A stretch of 11,056 nt of DNA from a virus. Lineage: Duplodnaviria > Heunggongvirae > Uroviricota > Caudoviricetes. Position numbers and translations under genes: made by a program. The DNA is taken from positions 1 to 11,056 of IMG/VR virus record IMGVR_UViG_2663763028_000004; one strand, written 5' to 3'. Below are positions 1 through 10,958 of the stretch, piece after piece. Below the pieces are notes generated by a model, which ran no database searches, had not been told where the DNA came from, and saw only the letters and a list, made by a program, of their open reading frames with translations. The stretch's first letter is position 1. Each line of letters opens with the position of its first letter.

Positions 1-472
1 TAGTAAACATCCGTCGAGGACTGATGAACGGTCGCCAAATCAGCAGCATGGAGCCTTTGCTGTTTCCCTTCTTCTCCAGCCCCGTCGATGGTTCGATAAA
101 ATTAATCCGTCCATCAGTGATAATGCGAACTTCGTCGACACTCTCCAGAGCCTTGCTGAACCATCCGACTGACATATCCTCTGGCACAAGCATCACTACC
201 GTCTGTCGCTGTTGTATGCACTGCTCAGCGGCTTTTTCCACCCACGGCCTGATATTGCTGTACGGTGGGTTATTCCAGATTGCCCCGTGGCTTATCCACT
301 CAGAATTTAGCGCGTCGTCGGCCTCAGTTAGCCAGTGAGCACACAGAGCATTTTTGTCGCTCGCTGCCGAATCCAGCCAGAATCCAAACTCAATATCCAG
401 TGCATCAAAAAGCCAAAGCGGCGTTTGCCAGCAGTCCTTGTCGTGTGCTGGCGTATTTGATTTGATAGTCAT
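1..472 (-). CDS. Phage-type DNA N6-adenine methyltransferase (Dam family); C-terminal end lies beyond the window start
   Basis: Not in the ORF track (no stop in window). My own reverse-strand translation from ATG (complement of 470-472) gives MTIKSNTPAHDKDCWQTPLWLFDALDIEFGFWLDS...WNNPPYSNIRPW..., with the NPPY catalytic tetrapeptide of N6-adenine MTases. Start overlaps the ninB stop (ATGA). Confidence 0.75.
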   Translation of the reverse strand, partial: MTIKSNTPAHDKDCWQTPLWLFDALDIEFGFWLDSAASDKNALCAHWLTEADDALNSEWISHGAIWNNPPYSNIRPWVEKAAEQCIQQRQTVVMLVPEDMSVGWFSKALESVDEVRIITDGRINFIEPSTGLEKKGNSKGSMLLIWRPFISPRRMFT

Positions 473-909
473 GCTGCCCGATCTCCCCATCGCGCTTTCC
501 ATTCGAGAGCCAGTCGAGCTTCGTCTGACCACTTAACGCCACGCTCTGTACCGAATGCCTGTATAAGCTCTAATAGCTCCGCAAATTCGCTTACACGCAT
601 CCTGCTGGTTGACTGGCCTATTACCACAAAGCCATTCCCGGCAAGGTTAGGAACAACATCCTGCTGCTTTAATGCTGCGGTAAACACACACTTCCAGCTT
701 TCTGCATCCAGCCAGCGACCATGCCATTCAACCTGACGAGAGACGTCACCAAGGCAAGCCCAAAGCTTTCGATTCTGGTCTAAGCTGCGGTTGCGTTCCT
801 GAATGGTTACTACGATTGGTTTGGTTGGGTCTGGAAGAATTTGCTGTACTGCGTGAATAGCGTTTTGCTGATGTGCTGGAGATCGAATTTCAAAGGTTAG
901 TTTTTTCAT
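469..909 (-). CDS. ninB: NinB (Orf-family recombination mediator)
   Basis: Track ORF 469..927; translation from the internal Met (MKKLTFEIRSPAHQQNAIHAVQQILPDPTKP...) matches lambda NinB as I recall it. Start trimmed to 909 because a GGGAGAGAGGGAAG Shine-Dalgarno sits just upstream of that ATG. Confidence 0.88.
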   Translation of the reverse strand: MKKLTFEIRSPAHQQNAIHAVQQILPDPTKPIVVTIQERNRSLDQNRKLWACLGDVSRQVEWHGRWLDAESWKCVFTAALKQQDVVPNLAGNGFVVIGQSTSRMRVSEFAELLELIQAFGTERGVKWSDEARLALEWKARWGDRAA

Positions 910-924
910 GACTTCCCTCTCTCC

Positions 925-957
925 CAAATAAAAAGGCCTGCGATTATCAGCAGGCCT
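925..957 (-). terminator. Intrinsic terminator between helicase gene and ninB (tR2-like position)
   Basis: 8-bp perfect stem AGGCCTGC/GCAGGCCT (934-941 / 950-957) with 8-nt loop; on the minus strand it is followed by TTTTTATTT (complement of 925-933). Confidence 0.6.
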
Positions 958-982: not shown

Positions 983-2359
983 TCATACGTCAGCCCCTTG
1001 TGCATATCGTCTGCCACGCGCAGCAGGTGCATTTGATGCTGTGCAAATCTGTCTGGCTTCATCCTGGTCACACGCAACAAAGTGTCCGTTGCAGAACCGC
1101 TGGTAAACCGTACCAAGCGAGCCAAAACGGTTTTTCGTCACGATGATTTCAGCAAATGGCGCGGCGCTACTGTTCTCGTCATATACCGCTTCCCGATAGA
1201 GCATGATGATTGAGTCTGCGTCCTGCTCAATGCTTCCTGAATCACGCAAATCTGCGTTTGTCGGGCGTTTATTTGGTCGCTTCTCAACATCGCGCGAAAG
1301 CTGACTCAGGGAGATAACAGACGTTTTCAGGTCTTTCGCCATCGCCTTCAGGCTTCCGGAGATGTGAGCAATTGCAAGGTCGTTGCGGTCTGCTTTCGGC
1401 TTCTCAATCAGGCCAAGATAATCCGCCATGATGAGTGACAGGTTTGGATTTTCCTGTTTGTGCCGTTCTGCGATTGAGCGTATTTCTTCGACCGATAACC
1501 GCGATGCATCGACTACCCATACATCCAAATCTGCAAGCTGACTCATGCCGTTAGCAACACGCGCCCAGCCTTCGTCATCCATCGATGCAGGATTTCGCAG
1601 CACGCTAACCGACATCCTCCCGGCGTTGGCAATGCTCCGCTCTGCAATCTGCAATGCGCTCATTTCCATTGAGAAAATCAATACTCCGCGCCGGACGTCA
1701 GAACCAGGAATAACGCGGCTTGCAACACCTTCGGCAATCTTCAGCGCCAGTTCGGTTTTCCCCATACCAGGACGAGCGGCGATAATCACCAGGTCTTCCG
1801 CGTTCATCCCTCCGGTGATAGCGTCAAGTTCTTCGATTCCGGTCTTCAGGGTATCGGACTCTTCTCCGTTCCTCAGACGCCTGTCAAGCGTGTCAGTGTA
1901 GTCAGTGATGATTTCACCTAACCGTACAGGTTTAACCTCGTCACGGGGCTTTCTGATGGCTGAGAGACGCTTTACAAGCTCATCCATCGCCTGACTCGAT
2001 GCGTCGATGGTTCCGCTCTGAATTGGTTCACGCATTTCGTCCATGATTTCCAGCACCAGACGGCGGTGATAGTTATCCGCGACCATTCCGGCATATCCCT
2101 TCAGGTTTGCGGCACTCGGGCAGTTTTTGCTGGTCATCAGGATTGACGTGAAATGCTCCTCTCCGCACGCCTCGGCAACCATCAGCGCATCGATTAGGTT
2201 TCTGTTTCTCGCCTGCTTGCGGATAACCTCGAAGGCTTTCCGGTAGAGTGGAATTGAAAACGCTTCCGGATCCAGCGTTGCCAGAACGTCGCTGGCGGTT
2301 GGTGTTAATCCACCAATCAGCAGGCCACCGATAACGCTCGCTTCGATATCCTGTCTCAT
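983..2359 (-). CDS. Replicative DNA helicase, DnaB family (phage P22 gene 12-type), replacing lambda P
   Basis: 458-aa track ORF; Walker A ARPGMGKT, Walker B-like LIMADYLGL, DnaB-like N-terminal domain. AGGGGGA RBS upstream; start overlaps the stop of the upstream O-like gene (ATGA). Confidence 0.9.
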
Positions 2360-3186
2360 GCAATCCCCCTGTCTGCAAACTTCCCTTCCCGTACTCCCGT
2401 TAACGAATCTTCCCTCAGCAGGTAATCAAAATCGGCCGTCCAGCCCGTGTCGTTGTCTCCGAAGTAAAACGGCTTGGCCTGATGCACAAACGCCCTGACA
2501 TACGCTCTGAAACCGTCCACGTTTGGCGTTTTCAGTTGCGGGATGATTTTCTTCAGGCGGCGTTTGCGTTTCTCGTTGACCGCAACAGCATGTGGAAGTC
2601 TGTCACCGACTTCGGTGTTGTAGGCGTTCAGGAAGGATTCGTAGTCGATTCGTTCTGCCTTGCGACGTTCAGGTTTAACCTGCCCATCGCCGCCCCCGTT
2701 AGGGGGTAAGGGGGTATTTGTATTTATTGTCTTTTGTATATTGTCTTTTGTGTTTGACTGATTCGGTAAATTGCTTTTTACCGATTTGGTGAAGGTTTGT
2801 TTTACCGAATTGGTAAATGTTTTACCGAATCCGTTAACTTTCGTTTTCCACTCGGAAATGTTTGTATTCATACCAACTTGACGCCCCACCTGAATGAGAA
2901 CTCCCATTCTGATAAGCTCGTTTTTGGCGGTAGAGCATTTGGTTGGTGCCATGCCAGTGAGTTCAGCGAACTGTTCGTTTCCGATCCAATCTATTTTTTT
3001 GTTGTAACCGTATGTCTTGCGCCACACAGCCATAACAATCAGTAACTGATGTAGAGTAAGTCCAGAAAGCATGGCGGCTTCTAACAGTGTGTTTGCAGTC
3101 CGAGTGTAGCCATCTTCGAGTTCTGCCACGCGATGCTCCACGACCTCCAGTTGAGGCCTGTAATCAGCTAACTTAACGACGCCCAT
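2356..3186 (-). CDS. O: Replication initiator, lambda O family (replisome organiser)
   Basis: 276-aa track ORF; N-terminal domain ([32 protein letters not shown]) resembles lambda O as I recall it. Low-complexity central linker ([15 protein letters not shown]) is encoded by the iteron array. Confidence 0.85.
2715..2838. repeat. Probable replication origin inside the O-like gene: iterons plus AT-rich tract
   Basis: Three direct copies of GTTTTACCGA(A/T)T starting near 2774, 2799 and 2819, one inverted copy (ATTCGGTAAA, 2761-2770), and an adjacent T-rich tract with tandem ATTGTCTTTTGT (2726-2750). Relative to O transcription the order is iterons then AT-rich tract, as in ori-lambda. Confidence 0.7.
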
Positions 3187-3334
3187 GTTTCACTCCTGCT
3201 TTGGCTAGTCTGTAAACACCAACAAGGCGCTCTGCGAACGCCCTGTTATTTGCTGCGGCTACCACTAATCCCTCAGGTGAATCAGGGTGTCGAATCTCTT
3301 CTTTTTCCTGGTATTTCTTACGACGTTTTGTCAT
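3173..3334 (-). CDS. Hypothetical small basic protein (53 aa) between cII and O
   Basis: Not in track (<60 aa). My translation: [59 protein letters not shown] Shine-Dalgarno 5 nt upstream; 3' end overlaps the O start. Confidence 0.4.
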   Translation of the reverse strand: MTKRRKKYQEKEEIRHPDSPEGLVVAAANNRAFAERLVGVYRLAKAGVKHGRR

Positions 3335-3344
3335 AATTACTCCT

Positions 3345-3421
3345 GTGGATTGATCCAGTAATTCCCTCAGAATTGCATATCAATTTGCTTAAAATCCTCG
3401 GTGGCGGCCGGGGATTTTTTC
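3345..3421 (+). ncRNA. oop-like antisense RNA overlapping the 3' end of cII (coordinates estimated)
   Basis: Extended -10 promoter TG-T-CATAAT (3329-3337) on the plus strand; plus-strand terminator hairpin CCTCGG/CCGGGG (3396-3413) followed by TTTTTT, inside and antisense to the cII 3' end. Same arrangement as pO/oop in lambda. Confidence 0.4.
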
Positions 3422-3663
3422 TTTGTGATTTCATCAAGCGCATACTTAAAAGCCCTGCTAATCGGACTGATGTCTGATGCCATTCCGAAAGCACACAAGA
3501 CCGAAGCAATAAATCTCCAGTCCGTTCTGCTTATCTTCGATTCATGACAGCCAATCATCTTTGCCAGACCGCGCTGTGTAAGCGTTGACAGGTTGATGAG
3601 TAAATCTGTTTCTGCGCGATCAACGTCGCGCTGTGATAGTTTGCTGTAACTTGTTTGTTCCAT
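3367..3663 (-). CDS. cII: CII-family transcriptional activator
   Basis: 98-aa track ORF in the canonical position downstream of cro and nutR; helix-turn-helix-like segment (GLAKMIGCHESKISR). Its start codon abuts a TTGC-N6-TTGT element, as in lambda. Confidence 0.8.
   Translation of the reverse strand: MEQTSYSKLSQRDVDRAETDLLINLSTLTQRGLAKMIGCHESKISRTDWRFIASVLCAFGMASDISPISRAFKYALDEITKKKSPAATEDFKQIDMQF
3394..3421 (+). terminator. Intrinsic terminator of the antisense RNA (tO-like), with bidirectional character
   Basis: 6-bp stem with one G-U pair, 6-nt loop, then a T6 run (3415-3420); A-run on the 5' side. Confidence 0.55.
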
Positions 3664-3769: not shown

Positions 3770-3997
3770 TTATGCAGCCAGAAGGTTCTTTTTGCTTATT
3801 TCAAGCATTTCGCTTGCTTGATATTTGCCACCAGAAATCTCTTCGATTTTTGATGCGTATTTAGTTTTCCCAAAAAACTCAGTCTTAGGGAGGAAGCCGT
3901 TTTTGAGCCACTTATAGACAGCCCTTTCGCTAACTCCACAAGCCTTCGCAACTTCAGGGATGCCGACACCTTTAATCGGCTCATCAAGATTTTGCAT
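3770..3997 (-). CDS. cro: Cro-like repressor (HTH)
   Basis: 75-aa track ORF transcribed divergently from cI across the operator region; HTH-like segment GIPEVAKACGVSERAVYKWL; AAGGA RBS 7 nt upstream. Confidence 0.8.
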   Translation of the reverse strand: MQNLDEPIKGVGIPEVAKACGVSERAVYKWLKNGFLPKTEFFGKTKYASKIEEISGGKYQASEMLEISKKNLLAA

Positions 3998-4075: not shown

Positions 4076-4783
4076 ATGGTTCAGAATGAAAAAGTGCGCA
4101 AAGAATTCGCCCAGCGGCTAGCGCAAGCCTGTAAAGAAGCTGGTCTTGATGAACATGGTAGGGGGATGGCCATAGCCCGTGCCCTTTCTCTTTCGTCCAA
4201 AGGCGTTAGCAAATGGTTTAATGCTGAGTCTTTACCGCGTCAGGAAAAAATGAATGCGCTTGCGAAATTTCTAAACGTTGATGTTGTTTGGCTTCAGCAC
4301 GGCACTTCGTTAAATGGAGCGAATGATGAAGATACTCTTTCATTTGTTGGCAAATTAAAAAAAGGGTTAGTGCGCGTGGTTGGTGAGGCAATTCTTGGTG
4401 TTGATGGTGCCATCGAGATGACCGAAGAGCGCGATGGGTGGCTCAAAATTTATAGCGATGATCCAGATGCCTTTGGTCTTCGTGTGAAAGGAGACAGCAT
4501 GTGGCCTAGAATAAAATCAGGAGAATATGTACTCATTGAGCCTAACACCAAAGTATTCCCGGGTGATGAGGTGTTTGTCAGAACTGTTGAAGGACACAAC
4601 ATGATCAAAGTTCTTGGCTATGACAGAGACGGAGAATACCAATTTACAAGCATCAACCAGGACCACAGGCCAATAACGTTGCCTTATCATCAAGTAGCAA
4701 AGGTGGAGTATGTGGCTGGTATTCTGAAGCAATCTCGCCATCTGGATGACATCGAGGCAAGGGAGTGGCTGAAAAGTTCGTGA
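4076..4783 (+). CDS. cI: CI repressor (N-terminal HTH, C-terminal LexA-like S24 autopeptidase domain)
   Basis: 235-aa track ORF; C-terminal GDSMWP motif and a Lys about 40 residues later (S24 Ser-Lys dyad pattern); no Shine-Dalgarno before the ATG. Confidence 0.9.
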   Translation: MVQNEKVRKEFAQRLAQACKEAGLDEHGRGMAIARALSLSSKGVSKWFNAESLPRQEKMNALAKFLNVDVVWLQHGTSLNGANDEDTLSFVGKLKKGLVRVVGEAILGVDGAIEMTEERDGWLKIYSDDPDAFGLRVKGDSMWPRIKSGEYVLIEPNTKVFPGDEVFVRTVEGHNMIKVLGYDRDGEYQFTSINQDHRPITLPYHQVAKVEYVAGILKQSRHLDDIEAREWLKSS

Positions 4784-5335: not shown

Positions 5336-5857
5336 ATGGCAAAGTCAAACGTTAGCGTGCAGGCATTCAAGGACTTCCTTGAAGAGCTTATGTCGCTGAA
5401 CATAATGAAGGAGGCCACCGCTCGAAATTTAAAAAACTCATCCGCTCGCCTCTTAACGGTAGTCCAAGAAGAGGAAATGGGTGATGTTACTCAGCTTGAT
5501 GTGAATGAGCTTGCCGAGCGATACATCAACGCAACTGAGCCGAAGCCTAGCGACAGCAGCATTACTGCATATAAAAGCCGCATGGAAAGTGCAATCAAAA
5601 AGTTTGTAGCTTTCCAGTCTGGTGAAGAAATCCCATACACTCCGATTGACAAAGAATCCAGTGAGGAAAAAGATTTGACTGGCGAACCAACAAAAGTCGA
5701 AGGCAAGGCTAATGCACTTCATACCTATGATCTTCCAGTAGTTCTTCGACCTGAATCAGGGGTTACAGTAACGATTAAAGGCATTCCTAACGATATCACA
5801 AACGAAGAAGCCGAACGCATCTCTTCAATTCTGAAGGTTTACGTTCGGCCTCAATAA
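5336..5857 (+). CDS. Hypothetical acidic protein (173 aa), moron in the cI-pL interval; family not recognised
   Basis: Track ORF with purine-rich RBS (AGAGAGAGAGCAA-ATG). Same strand as cI, but separated from it by a terminator and followed by one. No hydrophobic segment and no motif I can assign. Confidence 0.7.
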   Translation: MAKSNVSVQAFKDFLEELMSLNIMKEATARNLKNSSARLLTVVQEEEMGDVTQLDVNELAERYINATEPKPSDSSITAYKSRMESAIKKFVAFQSGEEIPYTPIDKESSEEKDLTGEPTKVEGKANALHTYDLPVVLRPESGVTVTIKGIPNDITNEEAERISSILKVYVRPQ

Positions 5858-6186: not shown

Positions 6187-6352
6187 GCCTCACGATCGCC
6201 CCCCATATTTAATAGCCGAAAATGTGGTAAACCGCGAACCAACTCACCAGCAATACCCCCTTCAACTACAGACCAATCTGCAGCATTTACAAAAATAAAT
6301 TTCCTTATATATCAAAATCATATCTCGAAGCATTAATAAACCACAAAATTTT

Positions 6353-6475: not shown

Positions 6476-6594
6476 AAACAGATACCAAACGAGATGGGTT
6501 TGTCGGTGATGTGAATTGCAGCTGCAACGACAGCAACCAGAAGATCAGCACCTGGCGCATCACCACCAAAGCCATTTCACATGAGGAAAACATC

Positions 6595-6930
6595 ATGACG
6601 GTAATCGTGTACGGGAAATCAACATTTGCAGGAAATGCCAAAACTCGCCGTCATGAGCGGCGCAGAAAGATGGCTATCGAGCGTGATGCCATCTGCAACA
6701 TCATTGATTCTATCTTCGGCACAGACAGTGAGGAACCTGTTCAGGAGGCCCCAAGAAAGCGTTTAAGCCTTTCTGAAAAAGCAATATCACTCGGAAGCCT
6801 TCGCTGCAAGAAGGCAGAAGAAGTCGAGCGTAAACAGAACCGTATTTACTACCGCAAGCCACGCAGTGAAATGGGTGTGACTTGTGTTGGTCGCCAGAAA
6901 ATGAAATTAGGCAGCAAACCACTTATTTGA
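6595..6930 (+). CDS. N: Antitermination protein N (P22 gene 24-like)
   Basis: Start chosen at the internal Met of track ORF 6511..6930 (GAGGAAAA RBS). N-terminus MTVIVYGKSTFAGNAKTRRHERRRKMAIERD contains the arginine-rich boxB-binding motif and is near-identical to the P22 N N-terminus as I recall it. Confidence 0.88.
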   Translation: MTVIVYGKSTFAGNAKTRRHERRRKMAIERDAICNIIDSIFGTDSEEPVQEAPRKRLSLSEKAISLGSLRCKKAEEVERKQNRIYYRKPRSEMGVTCVGRQKMKLGSKPLI

Positions 6931-6938
6931 GGTGATAT

Positions 6939-7409
6939 ATGACAATATCATGGAGCGTACCTTTTCCTGAATCAGAAACTGAACATGATGGAATGCCTGT
7001 TTTCTGGAGATTCCAGGCGACAGTTGAAGAAGATGGAATCAAAATATTCGCACTTCAATATATAGCTTTTCATCAGACAGAGCATTATGCATGGTTGGTT
7101 CCTGCGCATTGGATTGTTAATTTTAAACCAGCACCAAATCAGTGGTTACAGGAATGGAAACAAAAGAGAAATAGATATGCAATTAAGAAAGTAGCAAAAA
7201 ATGCAGAAAGATCTTTTGCATTCCCAACGAAGAAACTTGCCATTGAAAGTTTATTGCGCCGGAAGAAATACCATTTAATGAGAATCAAACAAGATTTGGC
7301 TGTTGTATCAACTCTTGTTGATGGGATGAAGAATATTGATACATCAACACCAGATATTGAATATAACTTTGGACACAACCAAGAAACAGAAAATTGGGTA
7401 TTTTATTAG
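6939..7409 (+). CDS. Hypothetical protein (156 aa), AT-rich, directly downstream of N
   Basis: Track ORF with GAGGTGA RBS, 8 nt after the N stop; visibly lower GC than flanking genes (roughly 35-40 percent by eye); no motif recognised. Confidence 0.7.
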   Translation: MTISWSVPFPESETEHDGMPVFWRFQATVEEDGIKIFALQYIAFHQTEHYAWLVPAHWIVNFKPAPNQWLQEWKQKRNRYAIKKVAKNAERSFAFPTKKLAIESLLRRKKYHLMRIKQDLAVVSTLVDGMKNIDTSTPDIEYNFGHNQETENWVFY

Positions 7410-7576: not shown

Positions 7577-7602
7577 CGTTATGTATAAATAAGGAGCACA
7601 CC

Positions 7603-7743
7603 ATGCAATATGCCATTGCAGGGTGGCCTGTTGCTGGCTGCCCTTCCGAATCTTTACTTGAACGAATCACCCGTAAATTACGTGACGGATGGAAGCGACT
7701 CATCGACGTACTTAATCAGCCAGGAGTTCCCAAAAATGGATAA
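7603..7743 (+). CDS. cIII: CIII (FtsH inhibitor stabilising CII)
   Basis: 46 aa from the internal Met of track ORF 7522..7743, AAGGAG RBS at 7591-7596. MQYAIAGWPVAGCPSESLLERITRKLRDGWKRLIDVLNQPGVPKNG is near-identical to lambda CIII residues 1-46 as I recall them. Confidence 0.85.
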   Translation: MQYAIAGWPVAGCPSESLLERITRKLRDGWKRLIDVLNQPGVPKNG

Positions 7744-8042: not shown

Positions 8043-8723
8043 ATGGGAACTGCGATATTAATACTCGGTGAGTCTGGCACCGGAAAATCAACCAGCATGA
8101 GAAATATCAATCCAGAGGAAGCAATACTTATAAAACCAATAGGCAAGCCGCTACCATTTAAATCAAAAGACTGGCTTGCATGGGATGCCAGAGCAAAAAA
8201 AGGAACCGTAGTTACCACTGACAAATGGGGTGTAATAGTTGCCGTAATTAAGCGTGCTCACGAATACGGGAAAAGAATCGTTATTGTTGATGACTTCCAG
8301 TATGTGATGAGCAATGAGTTTATGCGCCGCTCAGAAGAAAAATCGTTTGATAAATTTACTGAGATAGGCCGCCACGCATGGGAGGTCATTAAGGCTGCAC
8401 AGGATGCGCCTGATGACCTGAGAGTCTATTTTCTTGCGCACACCGAAGAAACCCCTATGGGGCGCGTGAAAATGAAGACTATCGGCAAAATGCTGGACGA
8501 GAAAATCACTGTCGAAGGCATGTTTACTATAGTTCTTCGCACTCTTACCCGCGATGACCAGTTCTTTTTCACCACGAAAAACAACGGTGCAGACACTGTT
8601 AAATCCCCAATGGGAATGTTTGATTCCAATGAGATTGATAACGATCTCTCTTTCGTCGATGCCACTGTTTGTGATTACTACGGCATCAATAATGTTCATC
8701 AAATTAAGGAAAACGCCGCATGA
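8043..8723 (+). CDS. P-loop ATPase, Sak4-like (RecA-fold recombination ATPase) candidate
   Basis: 226-aa track ORF; N-terminal Walker A GESGTGKST, Walker B-like RIVIVDD; located where lambdoid phages carry their recombination module; GAGG RBS. Confidence 0.6.
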   Translation: MGTAILILGESGTGKSTSMRNINPEEAILIKPIGKPLPFKSKDWLAWDARAKKGTVVTTDKWGVIVAVIKRAHEYGKRIVIVDDFQYVMSNEFMRRSEEKSFDKFTEIGRHAWEVIKAAQDAPDDLRVYFLAHTEETPMGRVKMKTIGKMLDEKITVEGMFTIVLRTLTRDDQFFFTTKNNGADTVKSPMGMFDSNEIDNDLSFVDATVCDYYGINNVHQIKENAA

Positions 8724-9307
8724 GCAACGTAATTTTTACTTATAACGAAGAAGCAGCACTGACCGCAGGGCAAGGTGGTTTTATTAACGAAACTGGCGCT
8801 TACATAATTACCATTACTGAAGCAGAACTCAAGCAATCAGAAAAAGGAGCCAAATTTATTGAGTTTTCTGGAGAATCCGACGACGGACGTAAAATCCAGT
8901 ATCTTAGCGTCTGTGTTCAGAAAAATGACGGCACGGAAAACAAATTTGGCGCAAATGTCGTTCACGCCATGATGGGGTGTGCCGGGATTGGACAATTAAC
9001 GCAACATATGGTTTCCGCCAGTAAATTTGTTGCACCTGAATTTCATGGAAAGAAAATCGGGTTAGTGCTCCAGAAAGTATTAACCACAAACAAAAAGACT
9101 GGCGCAGACAGCTACCAGATGGAAATACGCATCCCGTTTATTGCACAAACAGGTCAAACCCTTAAAGAAAAGGCAGAAGGCAAGCAACCAGAAACTATCG
9201 CCAACATGGTTGCCAGCCTCAAAGATAAAGACAATCGCTCTAAAAACGTAAGCCATAATCATGCAGATGATTATGGTTACAGCCAGAACGATTACCCTCC
9301 TTTCTGA
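8720..9307 (+). CDS. Hypothetical protein (195 aa) with SSB-like acidic/aromatic C-terminal tail; putative ssDNA-binding partner of the ATPase
   Basis: ATGA overlap with the upstream ATPase gene; C-terminus DDYGYSQNDYPPF resembles the SSB C-terminal DDDIPF tip; the body does not look like a canonical OB-fold SSB to me. Confidence 0.55.
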   Translation: MSNVIFTYNEEAALTAGQGGFINETGAYIITITEAELKQSEKGAKFIEFSGESDDGRKIQYLSVCVQKNDGTENKFGANVVHAMMGCAGIGQLTQHMVSASKFVAPEFHGKKIGLVLQKVLTTNKKTGADSYQMEIRIPFIAQTGQTLKEKAEGKQPETIANMVASLKDKDNRSKNVSHNHADDYGYSQNDYPPF

Positions 9308-9330: not shown

Positions 9331-9627
9331 ATGCCAGCGCCTCTGTATGGTGCGGATGACCCGCGCAACTGCTCCGGTAGCTCCAAGGCGGAGGTGCTGG
9401 GAAATATCAAAAACAATTTCGACGCGTTTCTTGCTCTGACACCAGAAACAAAAGCAGAACGGATGTACCGACGCGATATACAACTCGCGCTAAAACAGGA
9501 GAAGGACCGAACAAACGAAACAGCAATGAGACCGTTGCGAAAAGCGACAATAGACAAATTCCCTGAATATATCGACCCGCGCCTGCGTAATTACCGCTCA
9601 CGCTATGGCGCTATCAGTAATGACTGA
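9331..9627 (+). CDS. Hypothetical protein (98 aa)
   Basis: Track ORF in operon orientation with a weak AAGG Shine-Dalgarno. Confidence 0.5.
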
Positions 9628-9637
9628 GGAATTTACC

Positions 9638-9805
9638 ATGAGAGGACTTGCATACAATCCCGGCATTCTTCCGGCAGAAATGATTATTCGCCAACGCGTA
9701 AAGCCAATGCCATCGAGAGAGGAATTGCTTAAGAGAAAGAGTTTCGGTTCTGTTAATGACAACAAATATCTGAATGCGATGTGGCGTAAAGGAGGCAGCC
9801 AGTGA
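9638..9805 (+). CDS. Hypothetical protein (55 aa)
   Basis: Internal Met of track ORF 9605..9805 with GAGGA RBS 7 nt upstream; its stop overlaps the next start (GTGA). Confidence 0.4.
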
Positions 9806-10446
9806 ATAACCGTTTTTACATGATGTGCTTGCGTGAAACTGTGGGTAATAACGCCTCATTCCATTGCCATAACGGCAATGGTTACAGTTCTGATATCGAT
9901 CGCGCTCATGTTTACACGCTGGAAGAAGCCCAAAAATCCTGGAATTGTGGTCGAGATATCGATCAGCCTGTTTGCGCTGATAGCGTGGATGCAATGGCTG
10001 TGTGGCACGTTGATTGCCAGTACATCCCTACAGAAAGCCTGATTGAGCCAGATTGTACTGCGTATGTGGCCTACAAAAAAGGTAGCTGGAACGGCAACGA
10101 TGTTTACTGGCTTCAACACGGTGGATTGCCAACAGATGACTTCAGTAAAGCGACCATCTTTAGCGTCGCCAACAAAAACGAACCAGGAATAGTTTGGTTG
10201 CCATTTTCCATTGCTGATGCAGCAAAGCACCGGACGTTCAATATCAATAACTTTAACCGCAGAACAATGGTTCAGGGCGCAGGTTTGGTCATGCCTGACT
10301 GGTTGAAAGAGCAGAACAGAAGAAAGAAGTCGCGAAGCGGGAAGGTGCGTTGGAATTGTCCGCATTGCGGAAAAATAACCTGGCAGTACAGCCCATATGA
10401 TTTTGAAGGCTGTCGTGATTACAACTGTGAAGGATGGCGAGAATGA
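9802..10446 (+). CDS. Hypothetical Cys-rich protein (214 aa) with C-terminal CPHCGK...C...C zinc-ribbon-like motif
   Basis: GTG start preceded by strong AAAGGAGG RBS; translationally coupled on both sides; multiple Cys/His clusters. Confidence 0.7.
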
Positions 10447-10958
10447 CAATTGACTATCAGGCACTGCGAGATGCGGCAGTTGCAGTAGAAACAGAACCTA
10501 TGCATCAAAATTTTGTGGCGTTTCGTATGGCGTTCACGCCATCGGTGGCACTGGCACTACTGGATGAAATTAAGCGGCTGGAAGACACAAATATTGATGC
10601 TATGTGCCGTATTGCAGAGCTTGAGACTAATCTCGCGGCGCTGGTGGCAGAGAACGCCGGACTGAAACACGCAATGGCCGTAACTCTTGAGCATGTGTCG
10701 GTCACGGATGCAGGGCAGGCTGGTGTTGCTGCAATGATTATCAACGATGCCCTGCACCACAGCGAAACCCCAGCCACCGATGCTTTCCTGGCTGAAGTAC
10801 GGGCGCAGGGGGTAGAGATGCTGGCAAAAAATCATCAGAGTATCGTCAATGCACTTAAGGGAGATTCTTTATTTTCTGATGGTGAATACCGACATGCAGC
10901 TATTGTTTCCGCAGCTGTATATTTCGCTGCAGAGCTTCGCAAAGGAGGCAACCAGTGA
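10443..10958 (+). CDS. Ea22-like family protein
   Basis: N-terminus [15 protein letters not shown]...FTPSVALALLDEIKRLED follows the pattern of lambda-region Ead/Ea22-like proteins and of the adjacent paralog. Start placed at 10443 (GAAGGA RBS, ATGA overlap) rather than the track's 10434. Confidence 0.65.
   Translation: MTIDYQALRDAAVAVETEPMHQNFVAFRMAFTPSVALALLDEIKRLEDTNIDAMCRIAELETNLAALVAENAGLKHAMAVTLEHVSVTDAGQAGVAAMIINDALHHSETPATDAFLAEVRAQGVEMLAKNHQSIVNALKGDSLFSDGEYRHAAIVSAAVYFAAELRKGGNQ

Follow-up and report, generated by a model that had tools for sequence, protein, structure and literature searches.

The element at positions 2693-2837 is very probably a P22-type lambdoid replication origin that lies inside the gene of its own initiator. 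This assignment is based on the anatomy of the element, its near-identity to the annotated origin of phage P22, a geometry shared with phage lambda, purifying selection at the DNA level and the co-variation of its iterons with the N-terminal domain of the initiator, from which we infer that it is bound by the initiator and active in replication. The feature as such is already known, namely an ordinary origin of the P22/lambda phage family.

Genetic context and initiator gene

The window, i.e. the whole stretch of 11,056 nucleotides analyzed here, corresponds to the early region of a phage or prophage of the lambdoid group and contains the following genes:

469-927, minus strand: ninB
983-2359, minus strand: DnaB-type replicative helicase gene, 458 aa (DnaB_C, E = 9e-77, and a DnaB N-domain)
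2356-3186, minus strand: O/gp18-family initiator gene, 276 aa (PF04492, Phage_rep_O, aa 19-113, E = 4e-36)
3173-3334, minus strand: 53-aa ORF
3367-3663, minus strand: cII
3770-3997, minus strand: cro
4076-4783, plus strand: CI-type repressor gene
6511-6930, plus strand: N antiterminator, early-left operon (PF25694)
8043-8723, plus strand: AAA_24 ATPase, early-left operon (Pfam)
9331-9627, plus strand: P22-type Abc2 anti-RecBCD protein, early-left operon (PF11043)
10434-10958, plus strand: Ead/Ea22-like protein, early-left operon (Pfam)

The ORFs at 5336-5857, 6939-7409, 8720-9307 and 9802-10446 have no Pfam match. The Rfam family Lambda_thermo, the thermoregulator element of cIII, matches 7590-7648 on the plus strand (88.5 bits, E = 5e-21), where a cIII-like ORF begins. 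A strong terminator-like hairpin at 3391-3428 on the plus strand, AAAATCCTCGGTGGCGGCCGGGGATTTT followed by a T run, is antisense to the 3' end of cII and corresponds in position and strand to the terminator of the oop-like antisense RNA annotated in P22 and lambda; Rfam gives no match at this hairpin.

A first interpretation made from the letters of the DNA, in the following called the sequence-only reading, had placed an origin inside an O-like gene, and the Phage_rep_O match of the N-terminal domain bears this out. The initiator consists of this N-domain (aa 19-113), a segment encoded by the origin (approximately aa 114-172) and a C-domain (aa 173-276), with the iterons beginning at codon 117, after the N-terminal Pfam domain. 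Flanked by the Pfam domain on one side and the conserved C-domain on the other, the segment aa 114-172 is of low complexity and polar, with 81% polar or disorder-promoting residues as compared to 46-47% in both domains. From the domain boundaries, the composition and the substitution pattern it can reasonably be regarded as a flexible linker. An AlphaFold2 single-sequence model of the 276-aa initiator, calculated without an alignment, has a mean pLDDT of 40 and a pTM of 0.23, and a sequence search of the PDB with the initiator retrieved no solved relative, the best hits (E of about 0.3) being spurious GPCR matches.

The start of the helicase gene overlaps the stop codon of the initiator gene. 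The encoded helicase is a homologue of the P22 gene 12 product, with 90% identity to P22 gp12 and 91% to ST104 gp12.

Four dyad-symmetric iterons

On the direct reading of the strand, GTTTTACCGAAT is found at 2799-2810 and again at 2819-2830, while a third copy at 2775-2786, TTTTTACCGATT, carries T and not G as its first base. The start-to-start distances are 24 and 20 bp, in agreement with the spacing of about 20-25 bp given in the sequence-only reading. At 2761-2770 the repeat core TTTACCGAAT is present as its reverse complement, ATTCGGTAAA. The consensus TTTACCGAWT matches four times in the window, all within 2761-2830, with 0.04 matches expected, and none of 200 shuffles reaches four matches.

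Every repeat is in itself an internal dyad, TTTACC-N5-GGTAAA, which had been overlooked. The repeats described earlier as three iterons and one inverted copy are real, but are better represented by four dyad-symmetric 17-bp iterons in a single register, and the supposed inverted copy at 2761-2770 is the better-conserved half of iteron 4:

2821-2837, minus strand: iteron 1, TTAACGGATTCGGTAAA on the coding strand, 2 mismatches, first in the direction of O transcription
2801-2817, minus strand: iteron 2, TTTACCAATTCGGTAAA on the coding strand, 0 mismatches, perfect dyad
2777-2793, minus strand: iteron 3, TTCACCAAATCGGTAAA on the coding strand, 1 mismatch
2754-2770, minus strand: iteron 4, TTTACCGAATCAGTCAA on the coding strand, 2 mismatches

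In coding direction the iterons are spaced by 20, 24 and 23 bp. Dyad symmetry is best in the two inner iterons, with 0 and 1 mismatches as opposed to 2 in each of the outer ones. The right half is better conserved in iterons 1 to 3 and the left half in iteron 4, the latter being almost invariant in relatives. Allowing up to two mismatches, the dyad has six matches in the window (0.41 expected), of which four are the iterons; the remaining two, at 668 and 4231, are isolated, carry two mismatches each and are attributed to chance. No extra iterons, such as those of the six-iteron Stx phages, are found near the array within two mismatches. A terminator-like call at 2777-2817 was rejected, as it merely reflects base pairing between iterons 3 and 2.

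AT-rich tract and G/C-rich end

Downstream of iteron 4 in the direction of transcription the element continues with two further segments:

2715-2753: AT-rich tract, 8 G/C in 39 bp (20% GC), presumed DNA-unwinding element
2693-2714: G/C-rich end of the origin, within the P22 rep_origin feature, encoding PLPPNGG

The lambda-like order of iterons followed by an AT-rich region, as proposed in the sequence-only reading, holds along the direction of transcription, with the correction that the gene lies on the minus strand. The T-rich tract with a tandem motif is found as described, ATTGTCTTTTGT occurring at 2726-2737 and 2740-2751 with a period of 14 bp that is also detected by TRF. On the coding strand the tract is accordingly A-rich and carries the tandem motif ACAAAAGAC with the same 14-bp period. 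The GC content of 40-bp windows falls to 25% here, with flanks of about 50%, and when the 40-bp duplexes of the window are ranked by stability, 2715-2755 comes second from the bottom (z = 3.0). The least stable one, 6285-6325 (z = 3.8), is intergenic, between the ORF at 5336-5857 and the N gene; it probably represents the pL/oL-nutL control region and not a second origin, because no iterons are present there.

Originally the element had been delimited as 2715-2838. The site is correct, yet the left edge falls about 20 bp short, as the element extends to 2693. This G/C-rich end contains a dyad CCCCC-GTTA-GGGGG, CCCCCGTTAGGGGG, at 2693-2706, which is overlapped by two copies of the direct repeat AGGGGGTA (2701-2716). 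In relatives the stem of the dyad is kept and its loop varies. Folded as single-stranded DNA it yields -5.4 kcal/mol (z = -0.38), indistinguishable from shuffles. Its role in the origin is uncertain, and it is retained in the element because it is part of the homologous P22 feature.

Near-identity with the origin of phage P22

The original description of the P22 origin is reportedly that of Backhaus and Petri (Gene, 1984). In the RefSeq entry NC_002371 the rep_origin feature of P22 comprises 32840-32984 inside gene 18, carries the note 'similar to phage lambda' and corresponds in a gapless alignment exactly to window positions 2837-2693, opening with the first base of iteron 1 and closing with the final base of the G/C dyad. 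Over the 167 bp of window 2693-2859 both sequences are 95.8% identical. The origin segment of the window is found in identical form in 10 IMG/VR loci, and at least 80% of window 2300-3300 is present in 34 of 5426 complete E. coli genomes, with 99.3-99.6% identity among the best matches listed. The best matches to the whole window are Stx2a-converting phages.

P22 gene 18 was described by the Casjens laboratory as containing four repeats of about 20 bp unlike the iterons of lambda (PMC8022706). Furthermore, the hybrid lambda hy106, which carries P22 orf48-18-12 in place of O-P, is able to grow in E. coli (PMC3349717), and the P22 origin is thereby assigned to this interval. Neither a footprinting experiment nor a plasmid assay performed directly on the P22 origin was found in the literature, the annotation of this origin resting on the similarity to lambda and on these genetic substitution data.

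Since the start site is placed by inference here, and since plasmid iterons have regulatory ('handcuffing') roles, the iterons might bind the initiator mainly for autoregulation, titration or as a roadblock, with replication starting elsewhere. This is highly improbable. The iterons are directly adjacent to an AT tract that is conserved even more strongly than they are, the characteristic sign of an unwinding element; the array has exactly the geometry of ori-lambda, an element of established origin function; the hybrid of lambda and P22 restricts the position of the P22 origin to the three genes named above; and no other iteron copy exists in the window.

Constraint on the DNA of the origin

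The sequence-only reading had also suggested that the element is under both coding and cis-acting constraint. A codon alignment of 45 distinct genes with P22-type iterons, derived from 80 IMG/VR loci together with P22 and BTP1, gives the following diversities for third codon positions and for positions 1+2:

N-domain: third positions 0.225, positions 1+2 0.026
Iterons: third positions 0.060, positions 1+2 0.064
AT tract: third positions 0.022, positions 1+2 0.005
C-domain: third positions 0.318, positions 1+2 0.127

Left out of the diversity analysis were L048, L050, L018 and L065, in which the longest ATG-initiated frame across the origin comprises 198-255 aa versus 271-277 aa, suggesting frameshifted or decayed prophage copies or contig ends.

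In the iterons, positions 1+2 are as variable as third positions, and the constraint therefore acts on the DNA and not on the peptide. The double constraint is thus supported but has to be refined insofar as the DNA-level component dominates within the iterons, where the peptide is weakly constrained. Codons 117-162 have a mean third-position diversity of 0.050, as compared to 0.181 for the lowest other run of 46 codons, and none of 10000 permutations reaches the observed value. The same is evident from a single diverged relative (L041), in which third positions differ at 124 of 217 flank sites and at 2 of 42 origin sites (Fisher p = 3e-11), that is, at 54% in the N-domain and 60% in the C-domain as opposed to 1 of 28 in the iterons and 1 of 14 in the AT tract. 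Within the iteron array, substitutions are distributed according to the dyads: the diversity amounts to 0.017 in the arms, 0.106 in the 5-bp centers and 0.132 in the spacers, and the arms of 18 distinct related arrays are much less variable than their central 5 bp. This comparative evidence of purifying selection at the DNA level supports a cis-acting role of the element, although recombinational spread among mosaic phages could, besides selection, contribute to the low diversity.

Mosaic structure of the initiator

The initiator is a mosaic of three parts. Its first ~10 amino acids are of HK97/ST104 type, aa 10-145 together with the iterons are of P22 type and nearly identical to P22 gp18 apart from a handful of substitutions, and aa 146-276 are of HK97/ST104/BTP1 type, nearly identical to the ST104/HK97 form. 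The second junction falls exactly on the boundary between iteron 4 and the AT tract. Correspondingly, genes of the ST104/HK97 type are near-identical to the window from the AT tract onward and show many substitutions across aa 20-145. Three types of N-domain (P22-like, HK97-like and lambda) each possess their own dyad at the same positions. In this correlative comparison of sequences the iterons appear to travel with the N-domain, as would be expected if the N-domain reads them.

The chimeric nature of the gene, with its P22-like/HK97-like join at the iteron 4/AT-tract boundary, could also indicate that the conservation of 2693-2838 reflects a recombination junction for module exchange among mosaic lambdoid phages and not selection for an origin, and the AT tract is indeed common to genes with different iterons and different helicase partners. 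As the sole explanation this is very unlikely. It would account for the AT tract but not for the iterons, whose arms are kept within one lineage while centers and spacers drift. Relatives with 54-60% third-position divergence on both sides keep the tract as well; being retained amid diverged flanks, it must have persisted for long and is no recent arrival. A preferred junction is in any case compatible with the origin assignment, a conserved cis element being a good crossover point.

That the repeats are a mere by-product of a repetitive linker peptide (GFGKTFT/NSVKQTFT/KSVKSNL) with no role in cis is extremely unlikely: the peptide encoded by the iterons is indeed loosely repetitive and belongs to a low-complexity polar stretch, but a peptide repeat predicts conserved codon positions 1 and 2 and drifting third positions, the opposite of what is found (third positions at 0.060 versus 0.23-0.32 in the flanks, positions 1+2 at 0.064), and it explains neither the internal dyad symmetry, nor substitutions that shun the arms whatever their codon position, nor the pairing of a different N-domain with a different dyad at the same positions.

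Putative mechanism and significance

For the P22-type origin a mechanism can be outlined whose steps are taken from lambda (PMC7466680 and references therein). By homology with lambda, dimers of the initiator N-terminal domain would bind the four dyad iterons, which are spaced by about two helical turns, and the bound dimers would form an O-some by bending or wrapping the DNA. If the DNA is supercoiled, the O-some would destabilize the neighboring 39 bp of AT-rich sequence. Through its C-terminal domain the initiator would then bring in the phage DnaB-type helicase, the homologue of gene 12, and not a complex of lambda P with host DnaB; with the helicase being the phage's own, a loader of the lambda-P type would not be needed. 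Rightward early transcription (cro-cII-O) is expected to pass through the origin, and the origin DNA doubles as the code for the polar linker that joins both initiator domains.

The element would mark the start of theta replication and the P22-type initiator specificity of the phage or prophage, which bears on replication compatibility and interference among lambdoid prophages, Stx phages included, that share an E. coli host. It also provides a clean textbook example of a cis element that limits synonymous sites inside a gene, and an example of origin specificity exchanged as a cassette of N-domain plus iterons. Beyond correct annotation its importance is small.

The AT-tract core in the O family

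The first ~25-30 bp of the AT tract are also present in O genes of lambda, of HK97-type phages, of Klebsiella phages and others. A core of the form CACAAAAGACA-N5/6-ACAAAAGA is found in phages of E. coli, Salmonella and Klebsiella (the window and loci L084, L087 and L088). In Escherichia phage IdasGreatGrand the core is accompanied by five TTTACC-N6-GGTAA iterons, a partner of 233 aa, as large as lambda P, and, beyond the tract, a palindrome resembling that of lambda, and in Klebsiella phage ST11-VIM1phi8.2 by an AAA ATPase as partner. A coupling of the tract to the gp12-type helicase was considered and rejected, as the core occurs with a lambda-P-sized partner (L088) and with an AAA ATPase (L087). 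The core is almost invariant across P22, HK97, lambda and Klebsiella iteron types and across DnaB-like gp12, lambda-P-like and AAA ATPase partners, and it persists even with more than 50% divergence at the third positions of its flanks. Combined with such varied iterons and partners, it is therefore general to the O family and not a property of one helicase type. One might speculate, with considerable doubt, that the tandem ACAAAAGAC core is not just DNA that melts readily but a sequence-specific element of all lambdoid origins, serving for example as a grip of the initiator on the A-rich single strand; the chimera in the window would then reveal a preferred crossover point for swaps of specificity.

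Comparison with known origins

The closest known system is P22 itself, with which the window shares all four iterons, the AT tract in identical form, the G/C dyad, the site within the gene and a downstream DnaB helicase of the gene 12 type. Four substitutions distinguish the iteron array of the window from that of P22, all of them located in iteron centers or spacers. The first ~10 amino acids and the C-terminal domain of the window initiator differ in being of HK97/ST104/BTP1 type, the overall identity to P22 gp18 amounting to 80%.

In origins of the HK97/ST104/phage 2851 type the AT tract, the G/C dyad and the C-domain are nearly identical to those of the window, the helicase is a close relative, and the four iterons occupy the same positions. 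Their N-domain, in contrast, is divergent and their iterons read TTAGCC-N5-GGCTAA.

Iteron-containing theta plasmids (pSC101, R6K, RK2, P1, F) resemble the window in that repeated initiator sites lie beside an AT-rich unwinding element. In such plasmids the iterons are as a rule non-coding, are arranged as direct repeats outside the rep gene and occur together with DnaA boxes. The present element differs in being wholly intragenic and in its repeats being dyads, and the DnaA-box consensus TTWTNCACA has 0 matches in the whole window; an origin of the plasmid iteron type was rejected on these grounds.

The Stx phages 933W and P27 have a lambdoid intragenic origin with iterons followed by an AT tract (PMC7466680) and share the E. 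coli Stx-phage background with the closest whole-window relatives. They possess six lambda-type iterons, two of them extra, and a lambda-type O-P pair, as opposed to four P22-type iterons in the window.

In lambda, as in the window, the origin is intragenic and follows the N-terminal DNA-binding domain, with four dyad iterons of 6-5-6 geometry. The annotated lambda iterons start at 39034, 39054, 39078 and 39101, corresponding to spacings of 20, 24 and 23 bp, and those of the window start in coding direction at 2837, 2817, 2793 and 2770, with identical spacings. Footprints of lambda show that iterons 2 and 3 bind O best (PMC7466680), which is paralleled in the window by the inner iterons being the best dyads. 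In both cases the AT tract follows directly downstream, begins with CACAAAAGACA and repeats ACAAAAGA (start of the tract CACAAAAGACACTATTACAAAAGA in lambda versus CACAAAAGACAATATACAAAAGA in the window), and a palindrome is located after the tract. The iteron sequences differ, TCCCTC-N5-GAGGGA in lambda compared to TTTACC-N5-GGTAAA in the window. Identity of the initiator to lambda O is confined to aa 17-152, where it amounts to 41%, with no detectable similarity of the C-domains. Lambda O recruits lambda P together with host DnaB; in the window the partner is a phage-encoded DnaB-type helicase, and the unrelated C-domains fit these different partners.
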